64,000 nt of DNA from a candidate division Zixibacteria bacterium RBG-1 (GCA_000447245.1 AUYT01000001.1:804106-868105); one strand, 5' to 3'. Positions 3,328 to 55,757 are shown, numbered from the stretch's first letter. Made by a program: numbers and translations. Notes: generated by a model not told the origin, from the sequence alone.

Positions 3328-3357
3328 TTAAACTCCTCCTCTTGCTTTCAAATTTTT

Positions 3358-4997: not shown

Positions 4998-5025
4998 TTG
5001 ACTTTTGGTTTCGAAAAACTATTTT
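4998..5025 (+). promoter_or_regulatory. putative sigma70-type promoter (TTGACT-16-TATTTT) upstream of the SDR gene
   Basis: -35/-10-like hexamers with 16-nt spacer about 15 nt before the ATG at 5040. Confidence 0.3.
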
Positions 5026-5039
5026 TGTAAAAACCAACT

Positions 5040-5771
5040 ATGATTTCAGTCCAGGACAAAATTGTCATCATCACCGGCGCCAGCCGGGGAATCGGCAAAG
5101 CCACGGCTCTGCTTTTTGGTGAAAAGGGGGCTAGGGTTGTTATAGCCGCCAGAAGCCAGGATGATTCGGAAAAAACCGCTTCGGAAATGATCAAGAAAAA
5201 TCCGAAAAGTGAGGTTCTGGCCGTGGTCAGTGATGTCACCCAGGAAAAGAGTATTAAAAATTTGGTTCAACAGGCCATCCAGAAGTTCGGTGGGATCGAT
5301 ATTCTGGTCAATAACGCCGGAATCGGTATAAATAAGCCGGTGGCGGAATTTACCACTTTGGATTGGGACCTGACTCTGGATACTAATTTAAAGGGACCTT
5401 TTTTAATTTCACGGGAAGTTTTGCCGATAATGATAAAGCAGAGAGGGGGGCAGATTATCAATATCTCCTCCGGAGCCGGGAAAAACCCCATTAAAAATTA
5501 CGCGGCTTACTGTGCTTCCAAATTCGGACTGATCGGTTTTTCAGAATCCTTGGCTTTGGAAGTGAGAAATTATAATATCAAGGTATCAGTTTTGTTGCCC
5601 GGTACCACTGCCACTCATTTCGGAGATAAAAAAAGAGAATATGTGGGTCTAAGACCGAAAAACTCTTTATTGCCCAAGGAGGTAGCCGAAGCGATTTTAA
5701 CTCTGGCAACGCAGGAGCCGCAGGCCTGGACTTCTGAAATGAATTTAAGACCATTAATTATTGAACCATAA
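5040..5771 (+). CDS. short-chain dehydrogenase/reductase (SDR) family oxidoreductase
   Basis: 243 aa; TGASRGIGKA Rossmann motif, NNAG, catalytic YAAYCASK (YxxxK). Confidence 0.85.
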   Translation: MISVQDKIVIITGASRGIGKATALLFGEKGARVVIAARSQDDSEKTASEMIKKNPKSEVLAVVSDVTQEKSIKNLVQQAIQKFGGIDILVNNAGIGINKPVAEFTTLDWDLTLDTNLKGPFLISREVLPIMIKQRGGQIINISSGAGKNPIKNYAAYCASKFGLIGFSESLALEVRNYNIKVSVLLPGTTATHFGDKKREYVGLRPKNSLLPKEVAEAILTLATQEPQAWTSEMNLRPLIIEP

Positions 5772-5787
5772 AAAAGGGAGGTGCAGT

Positions 5788-6195
5788 ATGTTTAAAAAAA
5801 TAGCAGGGCTTTTAGCTCTGACGTTTTTGGCGAGTAGCCTAGCCGTGGCCCAAGAAGATACTACAGCGGCTGTCTCCGTAAATATCGACCAGATTTTATT
5901 CGGGACCGGAATCGAGAGCCGGGAAGCTATCGGCGTGGATACGGTTTTTACAGCAGATGTGGGAAATGTTTACTGCTGGGTTCTGGCAACCGGTGCCGAA
6001 GGTGAAACCCAGATTTCTTTTGTGTGGTATCACGGGGATGAACAGGTGGCGGAAGTGAATGTGCCGGTCAGGTCAGCCCGCTGGAGATGCTGGACTTCCA
6101 AGACCATAATGCCGGATATGACCGGGACCTGGAAAGTAGAAATTAAAGATGAAGCCGGAAAAGTTCTGGAATCAGCCAGTTTTCAAGTAAAATAA
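5788..6195 (+). CDS. hypothetical secreted protein
   Basis: ORF 5761..6195; likely start at ATG 5788 preceded by AAGGGAGG; N-terminal signal peptide MFKKIAGLLALTFLASSLAVAQ. Confidence 0.45.
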   Translation: MFKKIAGLLALTFLASSLAVAQEDTTAAVSVNIDQILFGTGIESREAIGVDTVFTADVGNVYCWVLATGAEGETQISFVWYHGDEQVAEVNVPVRSARWRCWTSKTIMPDMTGTWKVEIKDEAGKVLESASFQVK

Positions 6196-6238
6196 TTCAG
6201 GGAATTGAATTCTAAACAATGGTTCGTTAGTCAATAAT

Positions 6239-6280
6239 GGTCAACAATAGTCAATAATGATATTATTGTTGACCATAAAC
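6239..6280. promoter_or_regulatory. inverted repeat GGTCAACAATA-N14-TATTGTTGACC with flanking TCAATAAT direct repeats; candidate operator
   Basis: Perfect 11-bp inverted repeat arms at 6239-6249 and 6264-6274, about 30 bp upstream of the M24 start; the motif TATTGTTGACCAT recurs at 48895-48908. Confidence 0.4.
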
Positions 6281-6300
6281 TCACCATAAAGGAGAGAAAA

Positions 6301-7551
6301 TTGAGATGGAGATCAATCGGCAGGATGTTGTTTTTTACTCTGGCGATAAGTTCAGTCGCCTTTGCCAAACAGGGTTTGGAAACCAAAGTCAAAGCGGTCC
6401 AGAAATATTTAAAGGAAAATAAAATTTCCGGCTGGCTGTTATACGATTTTCACGGCAATAATCCGGTTGCCACGGAATTTGTCCAGCCCCAGGGGATGCA
6501 GACCAGAAGGTGGTATTATTTCATTCCCCAGTCCGGTTCGGCGTGGGGATTGGTGCATAGAATCGAACAGGCCAATTTCAAAGGTTTATACGGCAAGTTT
6601 GAAGTGTACTCCTCCTGGGATGAGCAGAAACGGAAGTTGAAAGAGATTTTGGCCGGACATAAAGAGATTGCCATGGAGTACTCGCCTCTGAATGCCATTC
6701 CCTATGTTTCCAGAGTGGATGCCGGTACGATTGAACTGCTCAGGTCTTTCGGGCTAAAAGTTATCTCTTCGGCTGATTTGGTGCAGTATTTCCAGGCCCG
6801 CTGGGATAAAGAAGCTTACCTGACTCACAAAGAGGCGGTCAAAGCTTTGATGGAGATTAAAGACAAGGCCTTCAACTTAGTGCGAGATAAAATCAGAAAA
6901 AATCAGAAAATTACAGAGTATGATTTACAACAATTTATCTGGAATCAGTATAAACAGTATAATATGATATCCGATTATTTTCCCATCTGTGCCGTGAACG
7001 AAAACGCCGGTAATCCGCACTATGAACCGACCAAAGAAAATCACCAGGAGATTAAAAAAGGGGATTTTCTCCTGATTGATATCTGGGCTAAAAAGAGTCA
7101 ACCTGGTTCGATTTACGGGGATATCACCTGGACGGCTTATGTGGGTGAAAAAGTGCCGGAAAAATTTGTGATGATTTTCAATATTGTCAAAGAGGCCCGG
7201 GATGCGGCGGTCAAGTTCCTGAAAGATAACTGGAAGAAGAAAACCATTTACGGCTGGCAGGTGGATGATGTTTCCAGAGGGGTAATTAAAAAAGCCGGCT
7301 ATGCTGATTTTTTCACCCACCGAACCGGGCATTCGATTGCCACGGAAGTGCACGGCAACGGGGTCAATATCGATAATTTTGAGACCAAGGATGAAAGAAA
7401 AATAATCCCCGGGGTGGGTTTTTCGATTGAGCCGGGAATCTACCTGAAAAATTTCGGAGTCCGTTCGGAAATTGATGTCTATGCCGGAGAGGATGGTATC
7501 GAGGTGACTTCGCTTCCTCTGCAGATGGAAATTATTCCTCTTTTGAAATAA
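6301..7551 (+). CDS. M24 family metallopeptidase (Xaa-Pro aminopeptidase/creatinase-like)
   Basis: 416 aa; TTG start 5 nt after AAGGAGAG; pita-bread motifs DFLLIDIW, HRTGHSIATEVHG, EPGIYL. Confidence 0.8.
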   Translation: MRWRSIGRMLFFTLAISSVAFAKQGLETKVKAVQKYLKENKISGWLLYDFHGNNPVATEFVQPQGMQTRRWYYFIPQSGSAWGLVHRIEQANFKGLYGKFEVYSSWDEQKRKLKEILAGHKEIAMEYSPLNAIPYVSRVDAGTIELLRSFGLKVISSADLVQYFQARWDKEAYLTHKEAVKALMEIKDKAFNLVRDKIRKNQKITEYDLQQFIWNQYKQYNMISDYFPICAVNENAGNPHYEPTKENHQEIKKGDFLLIDIWAKKSQPGSIYGDITWTAYVGEKVPEKFVMIFNIVKEARDAAVKFLKDNWKKKTIYGWQVDDVSRGVIKKAGYADFFTHRTGHSIATEVHGNGVNIDNFETKDERKIIPGVGFSIEPGIYLKNFGVRSEIDVYAGEDGIEVTSLPLQMEIIPLLK

Positions 7552-7980
7552 ATGAGAATATCTCCATCCAGAGTAAAAATCCAGCTCCGGAAATTTAAGA
7601 ATACCCCTTTTGCCCAGAACTTGGGGATAAAGATTGTGAAATTGAAACCGGGTTACGCAGAATTATCTTTAGCTTACCAGAAAAGAATAACACAACCCTA
7701 CGGTTTTATGCATGGAGGGGCTATTGCGGCTCTGGCAGATACTGCGGCGGCTACCTCGATTCATACTCTCTTGGAGCCGGAGGATAAGATGGTGAGTATT
7801 GAGATGAAGGTTAATTATATTGCGCCGGTGACTAAGGGGAGGATTTTTGCGGGGGCTAAAGTTATTCATAAAGGGAGGAAGACCGCGGTGACGGATGTGG
7901 ATATTAAAGATAGTGAGGGGAAGCTGTGCGCTAAGTCGATTGTGACTTATATGCTTTTTCCGGGTGGGAAGATAAAGTAA
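7552..7980 (+). CDS. PaaI/YbgC-type hotdog-fold thioesterase
   Basis: 142 aa; motif FMHGGAIAALADTAAATS typical of the PaaI thioesterase family. Confidence 0.7.
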   Translation: MRISPSRVKIQLRKFKNTPFAQNLGIKIVKLKPGYAELSLAYQKRITQPYGFMHGGAIAALADTAAATSIHTLLEPEDKMVSIEMKVNYIAPVTKGRIFAGAKVIHKGRKTAVTDVDIKDSEGKLCAKSIVTYMLFPGGKIK

Positions 7981-7995
7981 AATTAAGTTCCTTAA

Positions 7996-8850
7996 ATGCA
8001 GATTTGTCTACTTAAAGCATTATTTATTTCCTCTCATATTTTTTTTGTGACATTACTGGTGGTACAACCGTCTCTGGCATATGATGACGAAGGAGCAGTC
8101 GGATTTCAATCCTCAAAGACCAAATTGCAGAGTTTGACTGACTCACTTCCATCACAACTTGAAAAGACAAAAAAACGTTCAGATTTCGGAGTATTAGTTA
8201 ATTTCCGTCTTGGTCTTGGGCGACATGATAACTTGACTAAAGCTAAATCATGGACAGGACCTGAGCTAAAATCAAGTAATACCCATTTTACAGTTTTGAT
8301 TGAGAGTGGCGTTACCTATAAAAAAGCCTCAAGCAGTTTTTTTATTTCTTACCTGGCACCTATTCCCAGGATACAAAATATTTCCGGTTATGGACACAAG
8401 GCAGAGGCGGTGGATATCGGTTTGTTATTTAAAATGAGATTATTATCAATGAAATCTAAGGTCAACTTCACACCAGCCGTAGGATATATGTGGGCGAAAG
8501 AAATTGCGAACATTTATGACCCCAATGGGTCGCAACCAGATTCACTGGACTTGACCTATGCAGATAACGGGATGTCCTTTGGTGTGGACTTTCAATATAG
8601 ACTTGCAAAAAGCGGAAGAGTATCAGAGCATAGAATAGTCTTTGGTTACTTGCACGAAAATCTACGTAGAGAAGCGGATAGATATCAGTTGGAATGGAGA
8701 TTTTTAGGTTTTAATAAAGAGAAAGGTCAGGGAGGAAAGATGCTTTTTGACGATTTTGACTTTCTCGCTATTGGTTTGGAGCATGTAAGATGGTCAGATG
8801 GTAGAAATGACTGGTTTTTGATAGGTTCTTTTGGGGGGGTATTTAAGTAA
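7996..8850 (+). CDS. hypothetical exported protein (possible outer-membrane protein)
   Basis: 284 aa, N-terminal hydrophobic signal, no recognisable catalytic motif. Confidence 0.35.
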   Translation: MQICLLKALFISSHIFFVTLLVVQPSLAYDDEGAVGFQSSKTKLQSLTDSLPSQLEKTKKRSDFGVLVNFRLGLGRHDNLTKAKSWTGPELKSSNTHFTVLIESGVTYKKASSSFFISYLAPIPRIQNISGYGHKAEAVDIGLLFKMRLLSMKSKVNFTPAVGYMWAKEIANIYDPNGSQPDSLDLTYADNGMSFGVDFQYRLAKSGRVSEHRIVFGYLHENLRREADRYQLEWRFLGFNKEKGQGGKMLFDDFDFLAIGLEHVRWSDGRNDWFLIGSFGGVFK

Positions 8851-9069
8851 GGTATTATTTTAAGAGTTCCGTCAGGAGCTACTCCTGACGGCTATAACTG
8901 ACCTCACCCTACCCTCTCCTACAGGAGAGGGAGCAAAAATCCCTCCCATTGTAGGGGTTCACCCTGAAGGGAGGGGTCAGGATCACGAAGACACGAAAGC
9001 AACGAAAACAGTGGGTAGCCCAGCGGCTTCTGCCACTGGGTAAATGTGCGATAAATCGCACCGCTACAA
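8851..9069. repeat. composite intergenic palindromic repeat array (CCCTCTCC..GGAGAGGG hairpins plus GTGCGATAAATCGCACCGCTAC unit)
   Basis: Stacked hairpin units (CCGTCAGGAGCTACTCCTGACGG; ACCCTCTCCTACAGGAGAGGG; TCCCTCCCATTGTAGGGG) whose relatives recur at 27346, 32470, 36922, 37367, 41290, 44200, 46238, 48576, 50091. Confidence 0.6.
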
Positions 9070-9076
9070 CTTTAAA

Positions 9077-10450
9077 TTACGGTTTCGTCATCTCAATTTT
9101 CCCCAACCCCTCCAAATCCTTTCTGGTCTCTTTCGGATTGGTCACCACCACAAACACCACATCCTGATAGTCGAAATATTTATTCGCCACCCTTTTAATA
9201 TCATCCAAAGTCACCGCATCTATTTTTTGCATATAAGTATCAACATACTTGGAGTCCAAATTATAAAATTCAATATCGCTAATCTGCGAAGCCAAGGCCT
9301 CCGGTGTTTGAAGCCGGGAGGGAAAAAGCCCTTTCAAATAATTCTTAGCACCAGCCAGTTCATCTGGGCTGACCCCTTTTTCTCTAAACTTTTTCACTTC
9401 CTCTAAAGCCACATCAATAGTCTTTCTGGTAGTTTTATTCTTAGTAAAAGTAGAAATCAGATAAGCGCCGGTTTCTTTGAACATATTGAATCTGGAAGAA
9501 ACTCCATAAGTCAAACCTTGGTTGACTCTGATTTCATTGACTAATCTTGAAGAAAATCCTCCACCTAAAATAGTGTTAGCCACAACCACAGGGAAATAAT
9601 CGGGATTGTTACGAGGCACTGAAATATTCCCAATTCTAATCTGGGTTTGGGTCACGTCTGGTTTTTCCACAATCAGAAGTTTACGCCCTTTGTACTTAGT
9701 TGGAGCAGGAACTTTGTCTAGGCTAGAATTAGATTTTTGCCAATTGGCTAAAGTATTTTCAACTTTCTGTTTTACGCTCTGGGAACTGAAATCGCCTACC
9801 AAAGTTAAAATAGAATACTGGGGCACGAAATATTTTTTGTAAAAATTCATCACATCTTCGCGGGTAATGTTTTTCAAAGAAGTTTCGGTTCCAGAAACCG
9901 GATGTGAGTAAGGATTTTTTTCAAATAAAAATTGATAAAAAGCTTTAGTGGCAATGGTGGAGGGGTCATCTTTTTCTTCCTGTAAACCAGCTAAGGTCAG
10001 CTCTTTTTCCCGCTCAAACTCTTCTTGGGAAAAAACCGAATTGAGCAGAATGTCGGAAAGTAGATTCAAAGCTAAATCAACATCTTTGCTTAAAAATTCT
10101 CCACTGATAAAAGCATAATCGGGACTGGCTCCGCTGTTTAAACTCCCACCTACAAATTCAATTTCCTCTGAAATCTGTTCAAAAGATTTAGTTTTGGTCC
10201 CTTTTCTTATCAAGGTTGCGGTTAAGTCCGCCAAGCCTTCTTTTCCCAGCGGGTCATAGACAGAGCCGGCTTTGAGGACTAATCTAAAGTTTACCAAAGG
10301 GAGTTTCTTATTCTCCATTACCAGCAAAGTCAAATCATTTCCTAAGCTGGATTTTTGATAGGGGGGAAGTTTGATTTCGGATGCTAAAATTAAATTAGAA
10401 AAAACAACCAAGAGTAAAGAAACAATTATGGTAAGCTTAAATATTTTCAT
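9077..10450 (-). CDS. M16 family peptidase, non-catalytic-type subunit (no HxxEH)
   Basis: 457 aa, signal peptide, M16-like but no HxxEH; downstream of the catalytic M16 at 10486..11811. Confidence 0.7.
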   Translation of the reverse strand: MKIFKLTIIVSLLLVVFSNLILASEIKLPPYQKSSLGNDLTLLVMENKKLPLVNFRLVLKAGSVYDPLGKEGLADLTATLIRKGTKTKSFEQISEEIEFVGGSLNSGASPDYAFISGEFLSKDVDLALNLLSDILLNSVFSQEEFEREKELTLAGLQEEKDDPSTIATKAFYQFLFEKNPYSHPVSGTETSLKNITREDVMNFYKKYFVPQYSILTLVGDFSSQSVKQKVENTLANWQKSNSSLDKVPAPTKYKGRKLLIVEKPDVTQTQIRIGNISVPRNNPDYFPVVVANTILGGGFSSRLVNEIRVNQGLTYGVSSRFNMFKETGAYLISTFTKNKTTRKTIDVALEEVKKFREKGVSPDELAGAKNYLKGLFPSRLQTPEALASQISDIEFYNLDSKYVDTYMQKIDAVTLDDIKRVANKYFDYQDVVFVVVTNPKETRKDLEGLGKIEMTKP

Positions 10451-10485
10451 AAAGATTCATCTCCTTATAGTTTAAGGTCCAAATT

Positions 10486-11811
10486 TTAGATTCCAGCTTT
10501 TTCGGGCACTAAGGTTGCCACAGTCCGATTTCTATCAGTAAAATATTTTTGGGCTACTTTTTTTATATCCTCCACAGTGAGGGCTTTGTATTTATCCAAC
10601 ACTTTGTTTAAAAGAGTGTAGTCTCCGAATAAAGTCTGGTAAGTCCCAATCAAATTGGCTCTGCCGTTGTTGGTCTTCATAGATTTTATAAAGTTGGCTT
10701 CCAAAATATTTTTGGCTTTTTGCAGTTCTTTTTCAGTTACTCCAAGATTTTTGACTTTCTCTATTTCGTCATACAAAACCTTTTCCGCCTCGGTGGTATT
10801 AAAATTAGGTTTCATTCCCACATAAATATAAAACAGACCCGGGTCAATGGTGTAAAAGTAAGAAGACCAGACATCCGTAGCCATCTGTTTCTCATAAACC
10901 AAAGTTTTGTATAAGCGGGAGGATTCCCCTTCTGTCAAAATAATTTGCAAAACATCCAGAGCATAGATATCCTCACTCTGCGCACTGGGAATATGGAAGC
11001 CAGCCATAAAAGCTGGCAGTTGAGCTTCTTTGTAATATTGGACTCTTCTTTCCCCTTTTTGCTCTGGTTCGGCATTCACTACTTTAGGAATTGTAGGACC
11101 AGGTTTCAGATGTCCATAATATTTGTCTATTAACTTGAAAGCTTCAGCTGGATTTACATCTCCCACTATAATAATGGTGGCATTTCCTACTGAATAATAA
11201 GTCTTGAAGTAATTAACACAATCTTCGCGAGTGATAGCATCTAAATCCCCCATCCAACCCACCACCGGCCAATGATAAGGGTGGGCTTGAAAGGCAGCCG
11301 CGTATAATTCTTCTTCTAATTTTCCCTCATTGGAGTTGTCGGTCCGTAATCTTCTTTCTTCTTTGACCACTTCTCTTTCAGATGAAAGATTTTCTTCATT
11401 CAAAAGCAGGTTTTCCAGCCGGTCAGCATCTAGATCGATTATCAATTCTAATTTGTTAGAAGGAAAATCTTCAAAATAAGCGGTGAAATCGTTAGCGGTA
11501 TAAGCATTAGATACTCCACCATTGGATTCTAAAATTCTATCAAATTCTTTGGGACCATATCTTTTGGCACCGTTGAACATCATATGTTCAAACAGATGAG
11601 AAATTCCAGTGATGGCCTGTTTTTCGTTGCGGGAGCCGACTTTGAAGAAAGTAAAATAAGTGCAAATCGGCAAAGTATGGTCTTCTAATGTCAGAATCTT
11701 CAATCCATTCGGAAGTTGCTGGGATTTTATGTCTAAATCTAAGGCGAAAGCTAAACTGCTGAAAAATAAAAATGATATTAAGCTGGCGATTACAATTAAA
11801 CGCTTCATCAT
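10486..11811 (-). CDS. M16 family zinc peptidase (catalytic subunit)
   Basis: 441 aa, signal peptide, zinc motif HLFEHMMFNGAK (HxxEH). Confidence 0.8.
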   Translation of the reverse strand: MMKRLIVIASLISFLFFSSLAFALDLDIKSQQLPNGLKILTLEDHTLPICTYFTFFKVGSRNEKQAITGISHLFEHMMFNGAKRYGPKEFDRILESNGGVSNAYTANDFTAYFEDFPSNKLELIIDLDADRLENLLLNEENLSSEREVVKEERRLRTDNSNEGKLEEELYAAAFQAHPYHWPVVGWMGDLDAITREDCVNYFKTYYSVGNATIIIVGDVNPAEAFKLIDKYYGHLKPGPTIPKVVNAEPEQKGERRVQYYKEAQLPAFMAGFHIPSAQSEDIYALDVLQIILTEGESSRLYKTLVYEKQMATDVWSSYFYTIDPGLFYIYVGMKPNFNTTEAEKVLYDEIEKVKNLGVTEKELQKAKNILEANFIKSMKTNNGRANLIGTYQTLFGDYTLLNKVLDKYKALTVEDIKKVAQKYFTDRNRTVATLVPEKAGI

Positions 11812-11826: not shown

Positions 11827-12696
11827 TTAAGATTTTTTTCTTTGAGCTAAGACTACTCTTTCTATTCCGGCTAAATCTTTTTTGATTTGGATTTTCTCAA
11901 AATTGTCTGCTCGTTCAATCAACTTCACCACTTTTTTGGCTTGACCTAGAGCTACCTCTAAAGTTATTAGACCTCCCTTGCTCAAAAAATGTTTCCCCTG
12001 TTCAATTATTTGTTGCAGATAAAATAAGCCATTTTTTTTGGAAAGTAAAGCGACTTTGGGCTCGAATTTTTTTATCTCCTGAGGCAATGTTTTGAAGTCT
12101 GATTTTCTGACATAGGGGGGATTGGATACGATAGCGTCAATTTTTCCTTCCAGTTTTTTATCTAATTTCTTAAAGCCGTCACTCCGCAGGAATTTTATTT
12201 TTTTTGCAATTTTGTTGCTTAAAGCATTTTTTCGAGCCAGTTTTAACGCGGGTTGGGATACATCCAGTGCATAGACGAAGCAATTTAAATTCTTTGCCAA
12301 AGCAATGGCTATATTTCCAGAGCCGGCCCCCCAGTCAACTATTTGTAATTTTTCGCTTCTATCTTTGAAAAAGTTTATTACATTCTCCACTAAAATTTCC
12401 GTTTCCGGTCTGGGGATTAAAACATTTTTATCCACTTTTAATTTTAAACCATAAAATTCGGTCTCTCCTAAAATGTATTGTAACGGCTTACCTCTGACTC
12501 GTTCTTGAATCAATTTTTTATATTTCTGCTCTTGATTCTTGGTTAAAAACTGGTTGCCGTTGAGATACAATTCTACTTTGGGTTTTTTTACAACATGGCT
12601 TAACAGAAGTTCGGCGTTTACTCCCGGCGAACTGACTTTGCTTTTTTTGAAAATTTGTTTGGCTTTGCGAAGAGATTGTAAGTAAGTTTGATTCAT
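11827..12696 (-). CDS. prmC: release factor glutamine N5-methyltransferase
   Basis: 289 aa; SAM motif VDWGAGSGNIAIALA and catalytic NPPY (IVSNPPYV). Confidence 0.85.
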   Translation of the reverse strand: MNQTYLQSLRKAKQIFKKSKVSSPGVNAELLLSHVVKKPKVELYLNGNQFLTKNQEQKYKKLIQERVRGKPLQYILGETEFYGLKLKVDKNVLIPRPETEILVENVINFFKDRSEKLQIVDWGAGSGNIAIALAKNLNCFVYALDVSQPALKLARKNALSNKIAKKIKFLRSDGFKKLDKKLEGKIDAIVSNPPYVRKSDFKTLPQEIKKFEPKVALLSKKNGLFYLQQIIEQGKHFLSKGGLITLEVALGQAKKVVKLIERADNFEKIQIKKDLAGIERVVLAQRKKS

Positions 12697-13295
12697 TTTC
12701 GGCTGGTTAAACTCTGCAGGTATTTTTTTACTTTCTCTAAAGCTTTGGCTCGATGGCTGATTTCATTTTTTTGCTTCAATGAAAGCTGGGCAAAAGTTTT
12801 CTGCAATTTTGGGATATAAAATAAAGGGTCGTAGCCGAAACCAGATTTCCCTTTTCTTTCCGTGGCAATATAGCCGGAAATGTTTCCTTCCAAAAATTTT
12901 GCTTTTTTATCACTTAACATTAAAGCCATTACACATCTGAACCGGGCTTTCCGTTTCCGGAAGGGAACATTTTTCAATAGCTTCAACAATTTCAGATTAT
13001 TGTCTAAATAAGTGGCTTTTTCTCCGGCAAATCTTGAAGACCTGACCCCCGGTTTTCCTTTTAAGTAATCTACTTCTAAGCCGGAGTCGTCCGCTAAAAC
13101 AGGGAGCTTGGTCAATTTATAAACTTGGTCTGCTTTCTGCAGAGCGTTTTCTTCTAAAGTCTGGCCGGTCTCTTTGAGCTTGGAGATAGGTTTGAATTTA
13201 TCTAAAGTGAGTATCTGAATTTTCAAATCCGACAGGAGATTTTTTATTTCTTTGACTTTGTCTTTATTCTGGGTGGCTAAAATTAATTTCATCAA
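12693..13295 (-). CDS. rdgB: non-canonical purine NTP pyrophosphatase (RdgB/HAM1 family)
   Basis: 200 aa; N-terminus LILATQNKDKVKEI and SGFGYDPLF motif; 4-nt overlap with neighbours. Confidence 0.8.
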   Translation of the reverse strand: MMKLILATQNKDKVKEIKNLLSDLKIQILTLDKFKPISKLKETGQTLEENALQKADQVYKLTKLPVLADDSGLEVDYLKGKPGVRSSRFAGEKATYLDNNLKLLKLLKNVPFRKRKARFRCVMALMLSDKKAKFLEGNISGYIATERKGKSGFGYDPLFYIPKLQKTFAQLSLKQKNEISHRAKALEKVKKYLQSLTSRK

Positions 13296-48955: not shown

Positions 48956-50017
48956 ATGAAGAGTTTCAAGGTATTGCTTTTAGCCGCCATTTTTTTGTGT
49001 AGTATGGTATTAATCGCAGCTGCCTGCGAAAAATCCTCTCAGACTTCCACCGCCCAAGCCCAATGTGACCACCAAGTTTGCAGCAAAAAAACGGCCTTGA
49101 GCAGTTCAGATAAAGAGCATAATTGTTGTGCCTCTAAAGTAAAGTCCGCTTCCTCGCATTGTGAGGGAGTTAAAGAGAGTAACTTAAATTTGAAAGCCGG
49201 AACCTGTGAAGGGAAGTTTGATGGCTCACAGACCTCAGCCCAGAATTTGTCAACCAAAGCGGATAAATGCTGTCTTAAATCCAGCTTAGCCAATGTGGAA
49301 ACCTTAGAGCCGGCCCAAAAAGCTACTTCCAACAAAGAAGAAGCCGTTACCCAGAAGGCGGTCTTAAATGTTTCCGGGATGACCTGCGGCGGTTGCGCTT
49401 CGGAAGTGAAGTCGGCTTTGACCAAAGTGAATGGGGTTAAAGAGTGTAAAGTGAGCTGGAAAGAAGGGAAAGCGGAGGTGGGATTCACAGGTGATCCAGC
49501 TAAAGCCAATGAGTTAGTAAAAGCAGTAAACAAGACCGGTTTCAAAGCCAGTTTAGCCAGTGTGGAAAGTATCACAGCGATGGAAGATGATGAGGACGAT
49601 GCCTATGACGCCGAAGATGCTGATGATTCTGATGATGGCGAAGATGCAGATGCCAAGCAGATGGTGGTCAAAGAGAAAGAGACTTTCAAAGCTACCAGTT
49701 ACGTGTGTGAAGATTGTGGTTACAGACAAGCCAAAGGTGGAAAATGTCCCAGCGGTAACTGCAAGTTAACCAAAGTTACCGAGAAACACACTTTTGTGTG
49801 TGAAGAATGTGATTATGCCCAAGCCAAAGCCGGTGTCTGTCCGAGTCATAAAACTTCTTTGGTCGAATACTCAGTCAAATATGAATGTCCGGCCTGCCAC
49901 ATGGTTTACGAGACTGCGGGAGTCTGCTCCATGTGCAAAAAGCAGTTGCAGATGGTAACCGACGAACCGATTGCGACTGGTAAAAAGATGATGAGCAAAG
50001 AGAAAGCCACTTATTAA
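48956..50017 (+). CDS. Cys-rich heavy-metal-binding lipoprotein with HMA domain and three C-terminal Cx2C...Cx3-4C modules
   Basis: 353 aa; lipobox LIAAAC; HMA motif VSGMTCGGCAS; acidic linker EDDEDDAYDAEDADDSDDGEDAD; repeats YVCEDCGY..GKCPSGNC, FVCEECDY..GVCPSH, YECPACHM..GVCSMC. Confidence 0.7.
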   Translation: MKSFKVLLLAAIFLCSMVLIAAACEKSSQTSTAQAQCDHQVCSKKTALSSSDKEHNCCASKVKSASSHCEGVKESNLNLKAGTCEGKFDGSQTSAQNLSTKADKCCLKSSLANVETLEPAQKATSNKEEAVTQKAVLNVSGMTCGGCASEVKSALTKVNGVKECKVSWKEGKAEVGFTGDPAKANELVKAVNKTGFKASLASVESITAMEDDEDDAYDAEDADDSDDGEDADAKQMVVKEKETFKATSYVCEDCGYRQAKGGKCPSGNCKLTKVTEKHTFVCEECDYAQAKAGVCPSHKTSLVEYSVKYECPACHMVYETAGVCSMCKKQLQMVTDEPIATGKKMMSKEKATY

Positions 50018-50051
50018 TTTTTTCCGAGACAATTAATGCAGTAATTCTGAA

Positions 50052-50090
50052 GGGTGTCGTTTGATAAAAAAAACGACACCCCTTTAGTTT
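50052..50090 (+). terminator. rho-independent terminator
   Basis: 11-bp stem GGGTGTCGTTT/AAACGACACCC with 8-nt loop, followed by CTTTAGTTT. Confidence 0.55.
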
Positions 50091-50245
50091 GTAGCGGTGA
50101 GATTTATCGCACATCGTTAATCTAAACCCACTGGCTTCCACCATTGGGAAATTTAAATGCTGTGAATCGCGTTTAACTAACCCCTCCCTACCCCTCTCGA
50201 TTACACTCGAGGGAAACCTCCCCTAAAAGGAGAGGGAACTCAAAA
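50091..50245. repeat. composite palindromic repeat array
   Basis: GTAGCGGTGAGATTTATCGCAC unit, CCACTGGCTTCCACCATTGGG, and CCCTCTC..GAGGG / CCCCTAAAAGGAGAGGG units. Confidence 0.5.
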
Positions 50246-50314
50246 ATGATTTGATTTTCCACCTTTTAAACTATATTTTAAGTCAAAAACATAAATCTCA
50301 ACCTTGGGGGAAAA

Positions 50315-50704
50315 ATGGAATTTGAGATAAAGAGAATCAACACCTGGTCAGCGGTCAAAATTTCTTTCGTGGTATATGGAGTCCTGGGGTTAGTCTTAGG
50401 GTTATTCTACGGTATGTTTATCTTCAGTTTGGGAGGGCTTCTGGGCGGGCTGGCCAATCAAGAGCTGGCTCCCTTTACGGGAATGTTTTCCAGCTTGGCT
50501 GGAGGGATTTTCTTCACTATTATAATTGGATTCTTTATTGCTTTCATAAGCGCGGTAGTTTATGGAGTAATTATTACCGCCATTGTGGTCTGGCTATACA
50601 ACCTATTTTCCAAGTGGACTGGAGGGATTAAAGTCAACTTGGAGAAGACCGTAACTATGGTCCCGGCCAGTTCCTCCTCAGAGTTAGGAGGTGCACCGGT
50701 TTAA
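50315..50704 (+). CDS. hypothetical integral membrane protein
   Basis: 129 aa; three to four Gly-rich hydrophobic helices; stop overlaps the gltX start. Confidence 0.4.
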   Translation: MEFEIKRINTWSAVKISFVVYGVLGLVLGLFYGMFIFSLGGLLGGLANQELAPFTGMFSSLAGGIFFTIIIGFFIAFISAVVYGVIITAIVVWLYNLFSKWTGGIKVNLEKTVTMVPASSSSELGGAPV

Positions 50705-52152
50705 TGTCTGAAATAAGAGTCAGAATCGCCCCCAGTCCTTCCGGTTACCTCCATGTAGGAACGGCACGGACCGCAGTTTACAACTGGCTTTTTGCCCAAA
50801 AGCATAAAGGGAAATTTGTTCTAAGAATCGAAGATACCGATGAAGCCCGCTCTTCCAATGAGATGGTCAAGGGAATCATTGATTCTCTGTTGTGGCTCGG
50901 CTTAAAATGGGACGAAGGACCCTTTTACCAATCCCAAAGAATGCCCTTGTATCAAAAATCCGCCCAGACGCTATTGGAGAATAAAAAGGCCTACTTCTGT
51001 TATTGCACACCGGAAGAATTGCAAACCAAAAGAGAAGAAGCCCAGAAGAAAAAAATCGCTTGGAAGTACGACCGAAAATGTTATTTTCTCTCCCAAGATG
51101 ATAAGCAAAATTTAGAGTCAAAAAAAGTTCCCAAAGCCATCAGATTGTTGGTCCCGGAAGGGAAGACATCTTTCCATGACCTTGTCTATCGGGATTTGGA
51201 AAAAGAAAATCGGAATATTGAAGACTTAATTCTGCTCCGCTCAGATGGGCGTCCTACTTATAATTTAGCTTGCGTGGTGGATGATTTGGAGATGAAAATT
51301 TCTCACGTCATCCGGGGGAACGACCATCTACCTAATACATTCAAACAGATTTTGATTTATCAAGCTTTGGGTGAAAAACCGCCGGCCTTTGCTCATTTAC
51401 CTTTAATTTTAGGTATGGATAGGGCCAAAATTTCCAAAAGATTTGACGCGGTTTCAGTCACCGATTACAGGGACCAGGGATTTTTGCCGGAAGCGGTGAT
51501 AAATTTTTTATCCCTTCTGGGCTGGTCCCCCAAAGATAATCAGGAGGTTTTATCTGTAGCTGAACTAATCGAAAAATTCTCTCTGGAAAATGTGCATCAG
51601 GCTAATCCGGTCTTCGATATCCAGAAATTGGAATGGATGAATGGGGAGTATATCAAAGCCCAGCCGGATGAAAAACTTCTGGGGCTGGTGAAAAAATTCT
51701 GGATAGAAGCCAGCCTGGTTACAGACGAAGATTTCTCCAAAAAGAAGGCATGGTTGTTGAAAATAGTGGGAATTCTGAAAGAACGATGCAAAAAGCTGAC
51801 TGATTTTGTGGATTTGGGGAAATTCTTTTTCACTTCTGAGTTTGAGTATGAAGAAAAAGCTCTGGGAAAGCAGTTTAAAAATTCGGAAGTTGTCGCAAGA
51901 TTGACCAAATTAAAAGAGAAATTCCAAGGACTTGATGGTTTTGATAAGGCCAAGTCAGAAGAATTGGTGAGAAATTTGGCTACTGACCTGAATGTGAAGC
52001 CGGCCGAGTTGATTCATCCTCTGCGTCTGGCGATTACGGGTATGTCTTTCGGTCCATCTTTGTTTGAGATTGTGGAGCTTTTGGGGAAGGAAGAGGTTGT
52101 CAAAAGATTGGAAAAAGCCGTAAATTTTATACACAATAAACTGGGAACGTAA
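50704..52152 (+). CDS. gltX: glutamate--tRNA ligase
   Basis: 482 aa; HIGH-class motif PSPSGYLHVGTAR and KMSKS-class motif KISKR. Confidence 0.9.
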   Translation: MSEIRVRIAPSPSGYLHVGTARTAVYNWLFAQKHKGKFVLRIEDTDEARSSNEMVKGIIDSLLWLGLKWDEGPFYQSQRMPLYQKSAQTLLENKKAYFCYCTPEELQTKREEAQKKKIAWKYDRKCYFLSQDDKQNLESKKVPKAIRLLVPEGKTSFHDLVYRDLEKENRNIEDLILLRSDGRPTYNLACVVDDLEMKISHVIRGNDHLPNTFKQILIYQALGEKPPAFAHLPLILGMDRAKISKRFDAVSVTDYRDQGFLPEAVINFLSLLGWSPKDNQEVLSVAELIEKFSLENVHQANPVFDIQKLEWMNGEYIKAQPDEKLLGLVKKFWIEASLVTDEDFSKKKAWLLKIVGILKERCKKLTDFVDLGKFFFTSEFEYEEKALGKQFKNSEVVARLTKLKEKFQGLDGFDKAKSEELVRNLATDLNVKPAELIHPLRLAITGMSFGPSLFEIVELLGKEEVVKRLEKAVNFIHNKLGT

Positions 52153-52213
52153 TTCCTGAACCGGTATTTTCTTGACAAGGTCTTAAATTTTTCTATTTTG
52201 ATTTTTGATTTTC

Positions 52214-52284
52214 TGGGGGATCGTCTAACGGCAGGACGAATGGCTCTGGACCATTTAATCGGGGTTCGAATCCCTGTCCCCCAG
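52214..52284 (+). tRNA. tRNA-Gln (anticodon CTG)
   Basis: Hand-folded: acceptor TGGGGGA/TCCCCCA, D-stem GTCT/GGAC, anticodon stem AATGG/CCATT with loop CTCTGGA, T-arm CGGGG-TTCGAAT-CCCTG; TTGACA -35-like hexamer about 25 nt upstream. Confidence 0.75.
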
Positions 52285-52418
52285 TTAATACCCCCGGTTC
52301 GAGAAACCTGAAATCGGTACGTCTGCATTTTTGAAATTTTACCTGACAGATAAAAAGTCGTTCGTAGTTATATTTAAGTTGCATTTTCTATCACCTTTTA
52401 TTAATTTCTGTATTCAAT

Positions 52419-52670
52419 TTGATAAAACTAGATATGAGAAAAGCCTGGTTTAAAAAATATGGATGGGTTTATTATCCTATTAGCTGGCAAGGTTGGGCCC
52501 TAACCATCTTAACTTTGCTTTTTTGTGGACAAGTATTTGTTGCCGTTGACAGTCGTTCTCACTCTGTAAGTGATACACTATATGGAGTGTTCCCTTTTGT
52601 AGTGTCAGCCCTGGTGATTTTAGGGTGGATTGCCTCTAATACAGCTGATAAAAGCAATAAATTGCAGTAA
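52419..52670 (+). CDS. hypothetical small membrane protein
   Basis: 83 aa with two hydrophobic helices; lies between tRNA-Gln and the duplicated tRNA 3' end. Confidence 0.3.
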   Translation: MIKLDMRKAWFKKYGWVYYPISWQGWALTILTLLFCGQVFVAVDSRSHSVSDTLYGVFPFVVSALVILGWIASNTADKSNKLQ

Positions 52671-52920
52671 AGACAAATTCCAGATTTTAGAGGACTACGG
52701 ACTTTTTCCAAAATGAACTGATAGTTTTTCCTTCAAGAAAAATTCCTATTTAGATATCTTTGAGTTGCATTACACCTTAAAACTTTTGTAAAGTTGGCTA
52801 TCCATGATTTGTAAAATTCTTTCTAATTGCAAAATCTCGGAAAAAAACTAAGATGGGATCTGAGAGTAGAGAAAAATATCGCAAAATGTGCCCACTAACT
52901 CAAGAATCTACCTAACGCAC

Positions 52921-53071
52921 AATTCTGGTGCAGAAATCAGAGTTCTAAAGTTGTCCGCTATTCCCAGTTTATCCCGAGCGAGCGTAGCGAGTCGAGGGAT
53001 TTATCTCGGAGCACACTGATGGAGTTTTCCTCGATTCAAGAACTCGGAACAAGCGAATCCCTGTCCCCCAG
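52921..53071. repeat. intergenic repeat (AATTCTGGTGCAGAAATCAGAGTTCTAAA...TTTCCTCGATTC...) ending in an 18-bp copy of the tRNA-Gln 3' end
   Basis: Similar to 55038-55200; the 3' 18 nt CGAATCCCTGTCCCCCAG (53054-53071) are identical to tRNA-Gln 52267-52284. Confidence 0.5.
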
Positions 53072-53081
53072 AGTTATTATC

Positions 53082-53109
53082 TTGACATATCTTCTACTTT
53101 ATCTAATAT
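53082..53109 (+). promoter_or_regulatory. putative sigma70-type promoter (TTGACA-16-TAATAT)
   Basis: Hexamers about 65 nt upstream of gene 53173. Confidence 0.35.
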
Positions 53110-53172
53110 TTAACTCCCGAGTATTTAGATAGCAACTTGAAACATTTCAACCTAATTTAGAGGAGGTTCGCC

Positions 53173-54720
53173 ATGAGAAACAAAGTTGTGTTAGCAGTGG
53201 TATTTTTATTATGGATGGGACTTGCTTGGGCAGATACTCCCCAGCTGATTAATTTTCAGGGTCGACTGACTGATTCTTTGGGAAACCCTGTGAGTAATGG
53301 TGCCTATAGTTTACGCTTCAGAATCTACGATGATTCTTTGGCTGGTAATATTTTGTGGGAAGAGACCGACCCGGTTCAGGTAAAATCTGGACTTTTTACG
53401 GTGCTTCTGGGTTCAACTAATTCAATTCCGGATAGCGCTTTTTATTCTGCTAATCGCTGGTTAGGAATAAAAATCGGTACAAACCCTGAAATTACACCCA
53501 GACAGAGATTGGCTTCCGTGGGTTACAGCTATGTTTCTTCCCAATGGAACTCGGCTGACTCGAATCTCTATCGGATAAAGGGAAAAGTCGGCATTGGAAC
53601 TTCCACTCCCACCTTCGCAAAGCTGGAGGTCGTCGCCTCCAGTGGCATCGGCGTTTTCGCTTCGGGCAGCCCTGGCGTTTACGGCACCAGCTCATCAGGC
53701 ACTGGTGTTTTTGGCGAGGGTTCCTTGTACGGCCTTTACGGCAACAGCAACGGCACTGGAGTTTTCGGCACGGGCCCCCAGTACGGCGTTCACGGTGATG
53801 GGTACAACGGCACGGGCGTTTACGGCGAGGGCGACACGGCTGGCGTTAGCGGCCAAAGTATATCAGGCACTGGCGTTCGCGCCTTATCATATAACGGCCC
53901 CGGTGTTGTCGCTTCGGGTAGCACGTACGGCGTTTCCGGCACAAGCACCGGAGGCACTGGCGTTAGAGGCATTAGCGGCAGCGGCTATGGCGTTTATGCC
54001 TCGGGCGGCCCGAACGGCGTTGTCGCTTATGCAACTAATTCTGGCGGCTCGGCTGTTTACGGCTCGGGCGTCACGTATGGTGTTTACGGTGTGGCAAGCG
54101 CCAACAACGGCTCCGGTGTTTATGGTTCAAACGGCGGGAATCCCTCGACATATGCCGGCTACTTCGTCGGAACCGTTTACGTGGCCGGTGACTTTTATGC
54201 TGTAGGAACAACCAAAAGCGCCGCCGTGAAAGTCAACAACGGCGAATATCGGGTGCTTTATGCGCAGGAATCCCCCGAAAACTGGTTTGAGGATTTCGGC
54301 ACGGCCCAGTTGGTGAATGGCCAAGCCACTGTGAATATCGATCCCCTCTATGCCCAAACGGTAAATACGGCAGTAACCTATTACGTCTTCTTGACTCCGG
54401 AAGGGGATTGTCAGGGACTTTTCGTTACCGGCAAGACCCCGGCCTGTTTTGAGGTGCGGGAACTGCAAAACGGGAAATCCAACCTGTCGGTGAGTTATCG
54501 AATCGTGGCCAAAAGGAAGGGCTATGAAAACGTCCGCCTGCCCAAACTGCCCGGCCTAACTCCGGAAGAGGTTCAAGCCAAAGACGTCAAGCTCCGGGCC
54601 GAGATGGCCAAAGAAAACGCTGGGCACCTAGAGGAACAAGCCCGAATGGAGCAGGAACGTAAGAAAATGGAAGAAGAGCGCACCAAAATGGAGCAAGAAT
54701 GTTTGCTTCCCAAGCGGTAA
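53173..54720 (+). CDS. secreted glycine-rich repeat protein with GC-rich repetitive core and C-terminal coiled-coil
   Basis: 515 aa; signal peptide; about 20 tandem G-x-GV(Y/F)G-like repeats encoded by locally GC-rich DNA (53600-54200); C-terminal globular region and charged tail EEQARMEQERKKMEEERTKMEQE. Confidence 0.5.
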   Translation: MRNKVVLAVVFLLWMGLAWADTPQLINFQGRLTDSLGNPVSNGAYSLRFRIYDDSLAGNILWEETDPVQVKSGLFTVLLGSTNSIPDSAFYSANRWLGIKIGTNPEITPRQRLASVGYSYVSSQWNSADSNLYRIKGKVGIGTSTPTFAKLEVVASSGIGVFASGSPGVYGTSSSGTGVFGEGSLYGLYGNSNGTGVFGTGPQYGVHGDGYNGTGVYGEGDTAGVSGQSISGTGVRALSYNGPGVVASGSTYGVSGTSTGGTGVRGISGSGYGVYASGGPNGVVAYATNSGGSAVYGSGVTYGVYGVASANNGSGVYGSNGGNPSTYAGYFVGTVYVAGDFYAVGTTKSAAVKVNNGEYRVLYAQESPENWFEDFGTAQLVNGQATVNIDPLYAQTVNTAVTYYVFLTPEGDCQGLFVTGKTPACFEVRELQNGKSNLSVSYRIVAKRKGYENVRLPKLPGLTPEEVQAKDVKLRAEMAKENAGHLEEQARMEQERKKMEEERTKMEQECLLPKR

Positions 54721-55037
54721 GGCAACTCTTGGCAGGTTACCGGTATCAGACAGGATGCTTATGCCAACGCCCATCGGATTCCTGTAGAAGAAGAAAAAAT
54801 AGCTAAGGAGAAAGGATATTATTTACATCCCGAACTTTTTGGCCAGCCGGAAGAAAAACAACTTGGATGGGTCCATCATCCAGAAATGATGAAACAAGCT
54901 AAAGAAAAAAGAGAGCAAGAGGCCAAGCAGATTAAAACAGAATAACTCTTGAGCAGTTGGCAAAAAATTTGTGAGTGGCCGATTATAAGATAGTTGTGAA
55001 TTTCATCCGCTAACCCCAGTTTTTTTATTTGACAGAA

Positions 55038-55200
55038 AATTCTGGTGCAAAAAATCAGAGTTCTAAACTTGTCCCAGATCCCCAATTTACACCGAGCGTA
55101 GTGGTTCGACTATGCTCACCATAAATCGAGGGACTTATGGACAAGTGTAACAAACGGGGGTTTCCTCGATTCGCTCAGGCAGGCTCGGAATAAACAAATC
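55038..55200. repeat. intergenic repeat related to 52921-53071
   Basis: AATTCTGGTGCAAAAAATCAGAGTTCTAAACTTGTCC...GGTTCGACTATGCTCACCATAAATCG...TTTCCTCGATTCGCTC; a partial relative (GGTTCGACTGCGCTCACCATAAAAGG) is at 137-162. Confidence 0.5.
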
Positions 55201-55249
55201 CTGGTCCTTCAGTAATTATTCGCCATTTTATACTTTTTTAATTTTTTAC

Positions 55250-55322: not shown

Positions 55323-55757
55323 ATGATATTTACACCCAGCTTTGAATACGCCCTGCAGGCTTTGATATATCTAGCCGGGAAGGGCAATGGCAGCCCGGTT
55401 CAAGTCAAAGATATTGCCCAGGCCGAGGATATTCCTAAGTATTTTTTGGCTAAAATTCTGAATCATTTAGATCACGAAAATTTAGTAAAATCAGTCAAAG
55501 GTCCAGGAGGAGGGTTTAAACTTAGCCGGCCGGCCAATCGAATCAGGGTGAGTGAACTAATAGATGTATTTGAAGGGCTTGACCACCTAGACAAAGTTTG
55601 TATTTTAGGGTTGGATAGGTGTCAGGAACCAAACAGCTGTGCTTTGCATAAAGAGTGGAAGCAATTTCGCCAGTTGTTGAAAAAAAGGGTACAAAAATTG
55701 ACCATAGCTGATATGTGGAAAATACGGGAAACCAAAAGAGATCTCAATAAAAAATAG
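55323..55757 (+). CDS. Rrf2 family transcriptional regulator (NsrR-like by context)
   Basis: 144 aa; Rrf2 wHTH (FEYALQALIYLA, GPGGGFKLSR); two of the usual three cluster-ligand Cys visible (CILGLDRCQ). Confidence 0.75.
   Translation: MIFTPSFEYALQALIYLAGKGNGSPVQVKDIAQAEDIPKYFLAKILNHLDHENLVKSVKGPGGGFKLSRPANRIRVSELIDVFEGLDHLDKVCILGLDRCQEPNSCALHKEWKQFRQLLKKRVQKLTIADMWKIRETKRDLNKK

Follow-up and report, generated by a model that had tools for sequence, protein, structure and literature searches.

Probable repeated insertion at the 3' end of a tRNA-Gln gene, and probable tip replacement in the adjoining fibre-like gene, in a Zixibacteria genome

A stretch of 64,000 nucleotides (nt) from candidate division Zixibacteria bacterium RBG-1 (GCA_000447245.1 AUYT01000001.1:804106-868105), called the window in the following, carries a tRNA-Gln(CTG) gene followed, up to position 55212, by two direct repeats, a small membrane-protein gene and a gene for a secreted, fibre-like protein. 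The 3' region of this tRNA gene is, with high probability, an insertion hot spot, where insertion polymorphism is also present. In the model proposed here, which as a whole we regard as reasonably probable, the hot spot would have been used several times, each insertion joining at the terminal CCCAG of the tRNA; since every event joins there, older insertions would have been pushed downstream. The fibre-like gene would have changed by another route, its repeat region and tip being replaced by a module rich in G+C at third codon positions (GC3), while its old 3' end was left stranded.

The tRNA-Gln(CTG) gene is located on the plus strand at 52213-52285 by ARAGORN, and at 52214-52284 by Rfam (RF00005, 57.5 bits); it is intact, and no CCA is encoded. 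The last five bases, CCCAG (52280-52284), form the junction shared by all the insertions described. The last 18 nt, CGAATCCCTGTCCCCCAG, are found at exactly two sites in the window, 52267-52284 and 53054-53071: the exact recurrence reported in a first-pass annotation of this DNA is confirmed, as no third site is present in the window even at 3 mismatches, and 0.05 are expected from shuffled sequences. As in genomic islands, the tRNA gene that bounds the locus is intact, and its 3' part recurs in direct orientation further on. A terminal CCA is encoded in related tRNA-Gln genes (L107, position 4412; L025; L027) and in the variant L083 described below (position 2273), while the window tRNA ends in CCCAG followed by TTA at 52285; this difference suggests that an encoded CCA was removed by insertion at CCCAG.

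Two contigs from another sample of the same population indicate that the site is still in use. The first, L083 (ENA ERZ27254809), reproduces window positions 50013-52284 at 99.96% identity and diverges exactly after 52284, the last base of the tRNA. Beyond this point it contains a minus-strand open reading frame (ORF) of 202 amino acids (aa), cut by the end of the contig, whose last nine codons are tRNA antisense. The second, L100, matches window positions 52280-53497 at 100% and starts with 54 nt representing a third copy of a module, M1, that is found twice in the window; these 54 nt are 93% identical to the first of the window copies and are fused at CCCAG to base 52285. As L083 breaks off at 52284, and the M1 of L100 is joined to 52285, the window would represent the uninserted state of a site in current use. 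In the simplest reading, the two contigs would provide the two junctions of one recombinase-bearing element, located at 52284/52285 with CCCAG at both ends. The view, already taken in the first-pass annotation, that the 18-nt copy is the footprint of insertion into a tRNA 3' end is confirmed, and in these contigs the tRNA end is seen to be active as an attachment site. One alternative, in which L100 would represent 52285-52967 joined to itself as a circle or in tandem, was rejected: the M1 of L100 and copy 1 have different bases at 4 of 60 positions, and copy 1 is also present on the contig.

The ORF of L083 itself matches PF13408 only, and weakly (E=0.036); a catalytic domain would lie beyond the fragment. 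Its homologues P0123, P0131, P0132 and P0136 contain both PF07508 and PF13408, domains of large serine recombinases. Four homologues (P0126, P0127, P0130 and P0132) end in residues that correspond to the tRNA translated antisense (at best 83% over 24 residues, E=3e-7). One of them, P0127, comes from L093, a locus of another organism which holds Rep_1, a helix-turn-helix gene, a Resolvase ORF and a homologous Zn-ribbon ORF overlapping antisense a tRNA-Gln(CTG). In the proposed model, the recombinase gene of such elements would abut the tRNA end and read antisense into it, M1 being their far end. In L094, at 3090-3960, a truncated serine-recombinase ORF of 218 aa (P0122) is found amid tRNA gene fragments. 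Its 3' end runs on into what resembles a decayed tRNA end, which suggests an ancient relic of this type of element.

The sequences on the two sides of CCCAG may be compared with known attachment sites. Counting outward from CCCAG, GTTCGAATC occupies positions 11-19 on the tRNA side, and GTTCTAAAG positions 16-24 in M1: the two motifs match at 6 of 9 positions, the one in M1 lying exactly 5 bp further out. For the A118/LI integrase, the zinc-ribbon-domain motif is found at 16-24 in attP half-sites and 5 bp nearer the centre in attB (Rutherford et al. 2013, PMC3783163). Because the motif shift is the same 5 bp, the left halves would act as attB-left, in the tRNA, and attP-left, in M1. M1 appears to resemble the tRNA T-arm with its T-loop motif 5 bp outward, a likeness from which we infer that the attP/attB relation applies here; we lean, if only slightly, towards M1 being the distal (attP-left-type) end of a serine-recombinase element. 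Features shared with serine-integrase attachment sites are the short common core, CCCAG, the 9-bp motif displaced outward by 5 bp, the recombinase gene adjoining the site, and the Recombinase and Zn-ribbon domains of the homologues. The differences are that the target is here the end of a tRNA gene, that the last codons of the ORF are tRNA antisense, and that the right half-sites do not fit. No description was found of a serine-recombinase family tied to tRNA-Gln, with an element end mimicking the T-arm.

The two direct repeats of the window, 52892-53071 and 55007-55212, are 78% identical, with two indels. They had been described as copies of about 150 bp bracketing the larger gene: the bracketing is real, but both extend further than was thought, and each is a composite of three modules, M1, M2 and M3, all read on the plus strand. 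M1 copy 1 (52892-52967) is an end-module, with core AGAAATCAGAGTTCTAAAGTTGTCCGCTATTCCCAG and a sharp right boundary at CCCAG (52963-52967); copy 2 (55007-55085) ends in CCCAA (55081-55085). M2 copy 1 (52968-53053) is an ORF-less mini-element of 86 nt, composed in order of TTTATCCCGAGCG, TCGAGGGA (left inverted repeat), TTTTCCTCGA (right inverted repeat) and CTCGGAACAAG; taken with M3, it is 84% identical to the corresponding sequence of locus L104 and 77% to copy 2 (55086-55194), which is 109 nt long and includes an additional GGTTCGACTATGCTCACC hairpin. M3 copy 1 (53054-53071) is the exact 18-nt 3' end of the tRNA-Gln, from T-loop to discriminator base, and appears, by comparison with other loci, to be the duplicated target of M2. 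Repeat 2 ends in M3 copy 2 (55195-55212), a degenerate tRNA 3' end, CAAATCCTGGTCCTTCAG, which matches in the alignment at 13 of 18 positions.

M1 was found in eight contexts, six of which were aligned: its length ranges from 40 to 80 nt, the right boundary CCCAG is constant, and the right flank is different each time. Six of the eight lie 0.6-2.8 kb downstream of a same-strand tRNA, namely the two window copies, those of L102 and L104, both with tRNA-Gln(TTG), and two in L107, with tRNA-Asn and tRNA-Gln(CTG). M1 occurs without M2 in L100, L103, L104 and L107. Alignment of M1 to the tRNA 3' half gives shuffle p values of 0.001-0.1; a decayed tRNA copy was considered as the origin of M1 and rejected, as M1 is the same behind different tRNAs.

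In the proposed model, M2 with M3 would have come first, directly behind the tRNA, as is seen in L104 and L107; a small segment, E2, would then have been inserted at the tRNA/M2 junction. This nested order is suggested by the fact that M2 follows true tRNAs elsewhere, that M1 occurs without M2, and that all junctions are at CCCAG. Insertion of M2, with M3 as the target copy, would account for the exact 18-nt duplication. The region may be parsed, from left to right, as tRNA-Gln (52213-52285), E2 with its M1 (52285-52967), M2 (52968-53053), M3 (53054-53071), the fibre gene segment with its M1 (53072-55085), M2 (55086-55194) and M3 (55195-55212).

The body of E2 (plus strand, 52285-52891) has a host-like composition, and in L100 its sequence from 52285 onwards has a different left partner, the third M1 copy. 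It contains the small membrane ORF that had been noticed previously, which spans 52434-52670 when started at ATG (78 aa) and begins at 52419 when started at TTG (83 aa), and encodes a two-helix membrane protein. Public assemblies call it as 78 aa, and with 400 representative clusters at E<=1e-3 in its family, made up of widespread, unannotated proteins of 70-120 aa, this ORF can be taken as a genuine gene. Pfam reports nothing for it, and a PHROG holin match is not significant (E=0.083).

Sequences related to M2 and M3 are found behind other tRNAs. In L104, a tRNA-Gln(TTG) is followed directly by 158 nt containing TTYATCCCGAGCG, TCGAGGGA, TTTTCCTCGA and CTCGGAACAAG, and then by CGAGTCCTGGCGCCCCAG, an exact 18-nt copy of that tRNA's own end. 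In L107, some 120 nt, ending in GTTTTCCTCGA...CTCGGAATAAA, separate a tRNA-Asn from a copy of that tRNA's own end, which matches at 17 of 18 positions. In L102, M1 and the left part of M2 are followed by a GIY-YIG gene (PF01541, E=5e-20), the right part of M2 and a 17/18 copy of a tRNA-Gln(TTG) end. Both ends of the window M2 match the 541-nt element of L102 as well as the 176-nt element of L104. Pairwise identities of M2 with M3 range from 77 to 86%, and M2 is 86-157 nt long without an ORF, about 520 nt when it carries the GIY-YIG gene. The tRNA genes with M2 immediately behind them end in CCCAG. A copy of the local tRNA 3' end, 14-18 nt long, is always found 3' of M2 and matches the local tRNA at four loci; the cores behind three different tRNAs differ at 6-7 of 18 positions. 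As the terminal copy tracks the local tRNA each time, M3 would be a duplicated target, and not a fixed element sequence. In both mismatched cases, L102 and L107, tRNA and copy differ only at the fourth base, so that the true duplication may be of 14 nt. M2 is likely to represent a family of tRNA-end-duplicating elements, whose mobility is suggested by their distribution; no family of this kind, targeting tRNA 3' ends, with a local duplication of 14-18 nt and a GIY-YIG-bearing long form, was found described.

An analogous layout is present in L106, a complete Zixibacteria genome (CP070839.1): a tRNA-Ser, a GIY-YIG gene and an exact 21-nt copy of the tRNA end. Here the tRNA-Ser(GGA), at 12399-12490, lies between two small GIY-YIG genes; the copy, at 12829-12849, follows the downstream gene, and fragments of the 5' half of this tRNA (12023-12037, 12058-12080) precede the upstream one. 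In two WOR-3-type genomes (L047 and L049, near 9760-9890), exact 16-nt copies of a tRNA-Ser(GCT) end are located 129 and 42 nt downstream, with flanks unlike M2. Similarity to GIY-YIG is absent from the window and was seen in L102 and L106 only; a search for further GIY-YIG ORFs in the 1.26 Mb of fetched loci returned the three seeds alone, and no description of GIY-YIG genes linked to insertion into tRNA genes in bacteria was found in the literature.

A bolder interpretation, which we consider rather doubtful, would see in M2 an undescribed class of small bacterial mobile elements, invading CCCAG-ending tRNA 3' ends (Gln-CTG, Gln-TTG, Asn-GTT) and duplicating 14-18 nt, whereby the gene is kept intact. 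The autonomous form would encode only a small GIY-YIG nuclease (L102, with L106 as analogue), the window copies would be miniature, non-autonomous derivatives, and serine-recombinase elements would attach at the tRNA/M2 junction via an attP arm mimicking the tRNA.

Free-standing GIY-YIG homing endonuclease genes, such as SegB of phage T4, are known in tRNA gene regions. The small GIY-YIG genes beside tRNAs in L102 and L106 resemble them and could similarly spread by cleaving alleles that lack them; homing, however, makes no target duplication, while a 14-21-nt copy is found here, the window copies are ORF-less, the context is a bacterial chromosome and the nuclease is a putative one. Miniature inverted-repeat transposable elements (MITEs) are non-autonomous derivatives of mobile elements, and casposons give long target duplications at tRNA 3' ends. 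As in MITEs, short ORF-less copies of M2 share both ends with a longer coding relative, and feature an inverted repeat and a target duplication. Yet the inverted repeat of M2, the 9-bp pair TCGAGGGA / TTCCTCGA, although conserved, is internal rather than terminal, copies are very few (two in 64 kb, and five matching contigs in the metagenome scan), the 14-18-nt duplication is always of a tRNA 3' end, and neither a transposase nor Cas1 is associated.

M2 with M3 may alternatively be seen as the collapsed remnant (attL arm, attR arm and core) of islands inserted by tyrosine integrases into the tRNA T-loop, the GIY-YIG gene of L102 being unrelated cargo. The duplication does run from T-loop to discriminator base, which, according to Williams (2002), is reportedly the typical identity block of integrases targeting the T-loop. 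The mismatches at the fourth base would lie near the presumed crossover, and other lineages, as described above, have short-range tRNA-Ser end copies with unrelated flanks. For the same reading to hold, however, arms 77-86% identical behind three different tRNAs, with cores differing at 6-7 of 18 positions, would require either independent, similar collapses or integrases sharing arm sites but not core sites, and no tyrosine integrase was seen near any M2 copy. We regard this origin as rather unlikely.

The repeats might also be generic intergenic sequences, of the repetitive extragenic palindromic or MITE type, or structured RNAs, with a fortuitous likeness to tRNA; or the fibre gene might be a cassette shuffled by recombination between the 180-nt units. 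The window does contain many further families of palindromic repeats, the inner GGTTCGACTATGCTCACC hairpin of copy 2 resembles such repeats elsewhere, including L085, and the 9-bp inverted repeat of M2 is conserved. Against this, the terminal copy matches the local tRNA at four independent loci. The M1 pattern, AAATCAGAGTTCTAAASTTGTCC, was found in five contigs of the metagenome scan, two of them from the window's own genome, and is absent from viral contigs; scans of viral contigs with both M1 and M2 patterns, in which an autonomous parent was sought, gave nothing, or chance matches in coding DNA. Rfam, at gathering as well as permissive thresholds, reports only the tRNA, and the consensus fold of M2 amounts to one invariant 9-bp stem showing no covariation, by which a role as RNA is not supported. 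Concerning the shuffling of a cassette, no contig holds a product of recombination between the units, which are only 78% identical. Such origins appear very improbable: the suggestion of a repeat-mediated cassette does not fit repeats in each of which an element end is combined with a mini-element and a copy of the tRNA end, and the concern that the 18-bp match might belong to a generic non-tRNA repeat is not borne out, as the family is rare and tRNA-linked.

The larger gene (plus strand, 53173-54720, with TAA at 54718-54720) encodes a fibre-like secreted protein of 515 aa. Its upstream region (53072-53172) starts right after CCCAG and contains a promoter-like TTGACA-16-TAATAT (53082-53109) and a GGAGG ribosome-binding site; in L107 this region is 82% identical and again starts right after the CCCAG of M1. 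The protein is composed of a signal peptide (aa 1-20), a conserved N-domain with host-like G+C content (aa 21 to about 130), a Gly-rich region of beta-strand repeats (aa about 150-330), a C-terminal tip (aa 334-471) and a long helix (aa 464-511). The repeat units, of the form G-V-x-G/A, number about 17, close enough to the 20 or so counted in the first-pass annotation; they are spaced 9-10 residues apart and are 28% Gly. The central part of the gene is GC-rich, as had been noticed: G+C reaches 0.586 and 0.546 at 53501-54500, compared with about 0.42 elsewhere. GC3 rises as well, from 0.39 in the first 140 codons to 0.62 in the repeat region and 0.61 in the C-terminal domain, the six flanking genes ranging from 0.38 to 0.52, and GGC accounts for 71% of the Gly codons within the repeats, compared with 14% in the flanking genes. 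Given the high GC3 and the preference for GGC, glycine content alone does not explain the G+C peak.

The fibre- or adhesin-like character proposed earlier for this protein is supported by several tests. The PHROGs family phrog_6616, "tail protein", matches aa 334-471 (E=7.6e-19), and tblastn matches to phages, confined to aa 333-489 at 30-40% identity, fall in tail, tailspike and endopeptidase genes. Foldseek, run on a monomer model, retrieves tailspikes, tail fibres and pyocin fibres, albeit with low TM scores (0.1-0.2); in that AlphaFold model the mean predicted confidence (pLDDT) is 69, the repeat region scores below 60, and the N-domain and C-terminal domain are of high confidence. The NCBIfam model Bdello_MAT_N (NF053851) matches aa 11-92 (E=1e-8) at 35.2 bits, below its curated cutoff of 60. 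Pfam reports nothing, and an exact look-up returned no identical record; homologues number more than 2,500, mostly from Zixibacteria and neighbouring phyla, and one of them, P0001, corresponds to this gene but is 79 residues shorter in its repeats, showing that the repeat number varies. From these similarities, the gene is predicted to encode a secreted protein of the mosaic-adhesive-trimer (MAT)/phage-tail-fibre type.

The MAT family, described in Bdellovibrio, combines an invariant N-domain with exchangeable tips (Caulton et al. 2024, PMC10769870). The protein from the window shares with MAT proteins and tail fibres a signal peptide, a conserved N-domain, a Gly-rich shaft and an exchangeable, phage-tail-related tip; its paralogues diverge chiefly at the tip, and tandem arrays are found in L109. 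Different tips on a shared shaft are seen between the window and L091 alleles, in L107 and in L109. It differs in its host, a Zixibacterium that is not a known predator, in the N-domain score of 35 bits against the cutoff of 60, in the absence of the S74 chaperone domain and in its long, Glu/Lys-rich C-terminal helix.

Replacement of the tip is probable in this gene. Six nt after its TAA, and in frame, 72 codons and a stop are found (plus strand, 54726-54945). In the contigs L090 and L091, similarity to the window (98.9% and 99.95% identity) begins at 54726 and extends to the right, placing a recombination junction at 54725/54726; to the left they contain a different fibre C-domain, which reads through into the 72 codons. 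As this C-domain reads straight into it, the 54726-54945 segment would be the orphan 3' end of another allele, displaced from the ancestral gene. In the related genome of L107, the tRNA-Gln is 96% identical to that of the window, and the CCCAG of an M1 copy abuts the same fibre promoter region, which is 82% identical over window positions 53067-53525; its fibre gene combines the same N-domain with an L091-type tip and with a 3' end 81.5% identical to the orphan. This combination suggests that the ancestral gene at the locus had the other tip. The replacement module, rich in GC3, would span about 53590 to 54725. Its closest relative, for repeat region and tip, is the paralogue P0002 (64% identity as protein, 82-86% as DNA), encoded in GCA_001775405.1, which also encodes the window GltX residue for residue, as do several metagenome assemblies; the window is thereby placed in the RBG-1 lineage. 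P0002 (L085, 9886-11509) has the same G+C mosaic and starts 42 nt behind a tRNA-Asn(GTT), near which neither a tRNA-end copy nor M1 was found; in the RBG-1 genome, each of the two fibre paralogues thus has a tRNA 3' end, or a copy of such an end, closely in front of it.

Homologous recombination, in the N-domain or shaft, probably made the left junction of the exchange, and illegitimate recombination, 5 nt past the donor stop, the right one. Alternatively, the locus may once have had two genes in tandem, like those of L109, and the orphan may be what a deletion left of them; counter to this, the L107 counterpart is a single gene with that tip. L109 contains, at 4050-11510, five tandem fibre paralogues with a shared N-domain and differing tips, one of the window type and one of the L091 type, the last gene featuring Peptidase_S74.

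The whole region might instead be a single decayed island, from about 52285 to 55212, which has lost its (tyrosine) integrase, with the fibre gene as cargo and the repeats as its ends. The tRNA is intact at one end and a copy of its 3' end is found further on, the fibre gene deviates in GC3, both fibre paralogues start just after a tRNA 3' end, and an M1-M2-M3 block is located to the right of the gene. The exact 18-nt copy, however, is upstream of the fibre gene, within an 86-nt element that has counterparts elsewhere; the N-domain and upstream region of the gene are host-like and occupy the same place behind tRNA-Gln in L107; variation between strains affects the distal part of the gene rather than its presence; and the paralogue P0002 shows the same G+C mosaic. 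We judge a single island to be improbable. The island that had been thought to be delimited by the 18-nt copy gives way to an 86-nt mini-element ending in that copy, with equivalents behind tRNA-Gln(TTG) and tRNA-Asn, and the whole fibre gene can hardly be its cargo, as no relative was found in which it is absent, and L107 has a counterpart behind tRNA-Gln. No contig was found lacking either 52285-53071 or 53072-55212, which would represent a presence/absence polymorphism of the whole segment; the polymorphisms found instead are the extra insertion at 52284/52285 and the allele swap ending at 54725.

No integrase is visible, in agreement with the first inspection: precomputed Pfam matches show no integrase or recombinase in 52285-55212, or in 40.7-64 kb, ten further ORFs are housekeeping genes, and tblastn with recombinase, Rep and GIY-YIG queries gave no match in the window. 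Williams (2002) is said to have described tRNA-linked genomic islands and their integrase-mediated tandem accretion. The intact tRNA, the downstream copy of its 3' part, the reuse of the tRNA, and the outward shift and decay of older elements all resemble such islands; the differences are that the element seen inserting here has a putative large serine recombinase, not a tyrosine integrase, that the exact copy flanks only 86 nt, and that the window is integrase-free.

Several points weigh against the composite model favoured here. The proposed right half-sites do not feature the 5-bp shift. Serine integrases, acting strictly on attP and attB, are not expected to reuse attL, with which repeated insertion at one tRNA end is at odds; reuse would need the left ends of older elements to mimic attB-right, and the first bases of these ends (TTAATACC, TTTATCCC, TTTACACC) are alike. 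No circular attP junction was observed. L083 and L100 are short contigs, which stop before the interior of the element and the N-terminus of the recombinase, and we infer that they belong to one element. One M1 copy of L107 (2503-2538) lies behind a tRNA-Asn whose 3' end is not CCCAG, and the M1 context of L103 has no tRNA on its contig. Insertion polymorphism of M2 was not observed, and its link to GIY-YIG comes from one M2 member and one analogous locus. The second M1-M2-M3 block, 3' of the fibre gene, is absent from the L107 counterpart. Few loci and short contigs underlie both novel claims, the M2 family and the serine-recombinase family with a T-arm-mimicking end.

The genes around the hot spot are not of phage type: the neighbours of the fibre gene are gltX, the tRNA, Rrf2, a multicopper oxidase and cytochromes, with no phage structural genes. 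Rrf2 (55323-55757) forms the right flank of the hot spot and is followed, up to 64000, by the multicopper oxidase, a thioredoxin-like protein, multihaem cytochromes, an MtrB/PioB-like porin, and Fer4 and NrfD proteins; adjoining the hot spot on its downstream side, the segment 55323-64000 has the appearance of a gene cluster for extracellular electron transfer. Synteny at gltX was evaluated in 80 loci, from distant relatives only, the closest other genome (L001, 86%) ending at gltX; the downstream genes, Rrf2 and the oxidase, are absent from all 80. Public assemblies of the population end within the region, at 52992, 53497-53502 and 54387, as assemblies do where strains vary and repeats are present. 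Elsewhere in the window, a protein with an HMA domain (48956-50017) has an internally duplicated Cys-rich segment (49696-49752 and 49789-49845, 72% identical). Intergenic palindromic repeat families are found at 21382-44309, with TCCCTCCCCTAAAAGGGGAGGG at six sites and GGGTCGGGAGACCC...GGTCTCCTGACC at four, and a pair of 55-nt repeats, 93% identical, at 33262 and 34843.

Much of what is described is already known in kind: tRNA-linked hot spots with decayed remnants, the architecture of serine-integrase sites, and mosaic fibres. If only the conservative part of the analysis is true, the region is an ordinary tRNA-linked hot spot with decayed remnants. If the M2 family is real, annotation should recognise it, as its tRNA-end copies mimic island boundaries. 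A serine integrase targeting a tRNA end would, if confirmed, be a natural test of the 5-bp shift between attP and attB, and could point to new integrases with a defined, universal target. The swapping of tips, in a type of fibre used by Bdellovibrio for prey recognition, hints at surface recognition in Zixibacteria. If the model is true as a whole, one short stretch of DNA would record three routes of genome remodelling in an uncultivated phylum.

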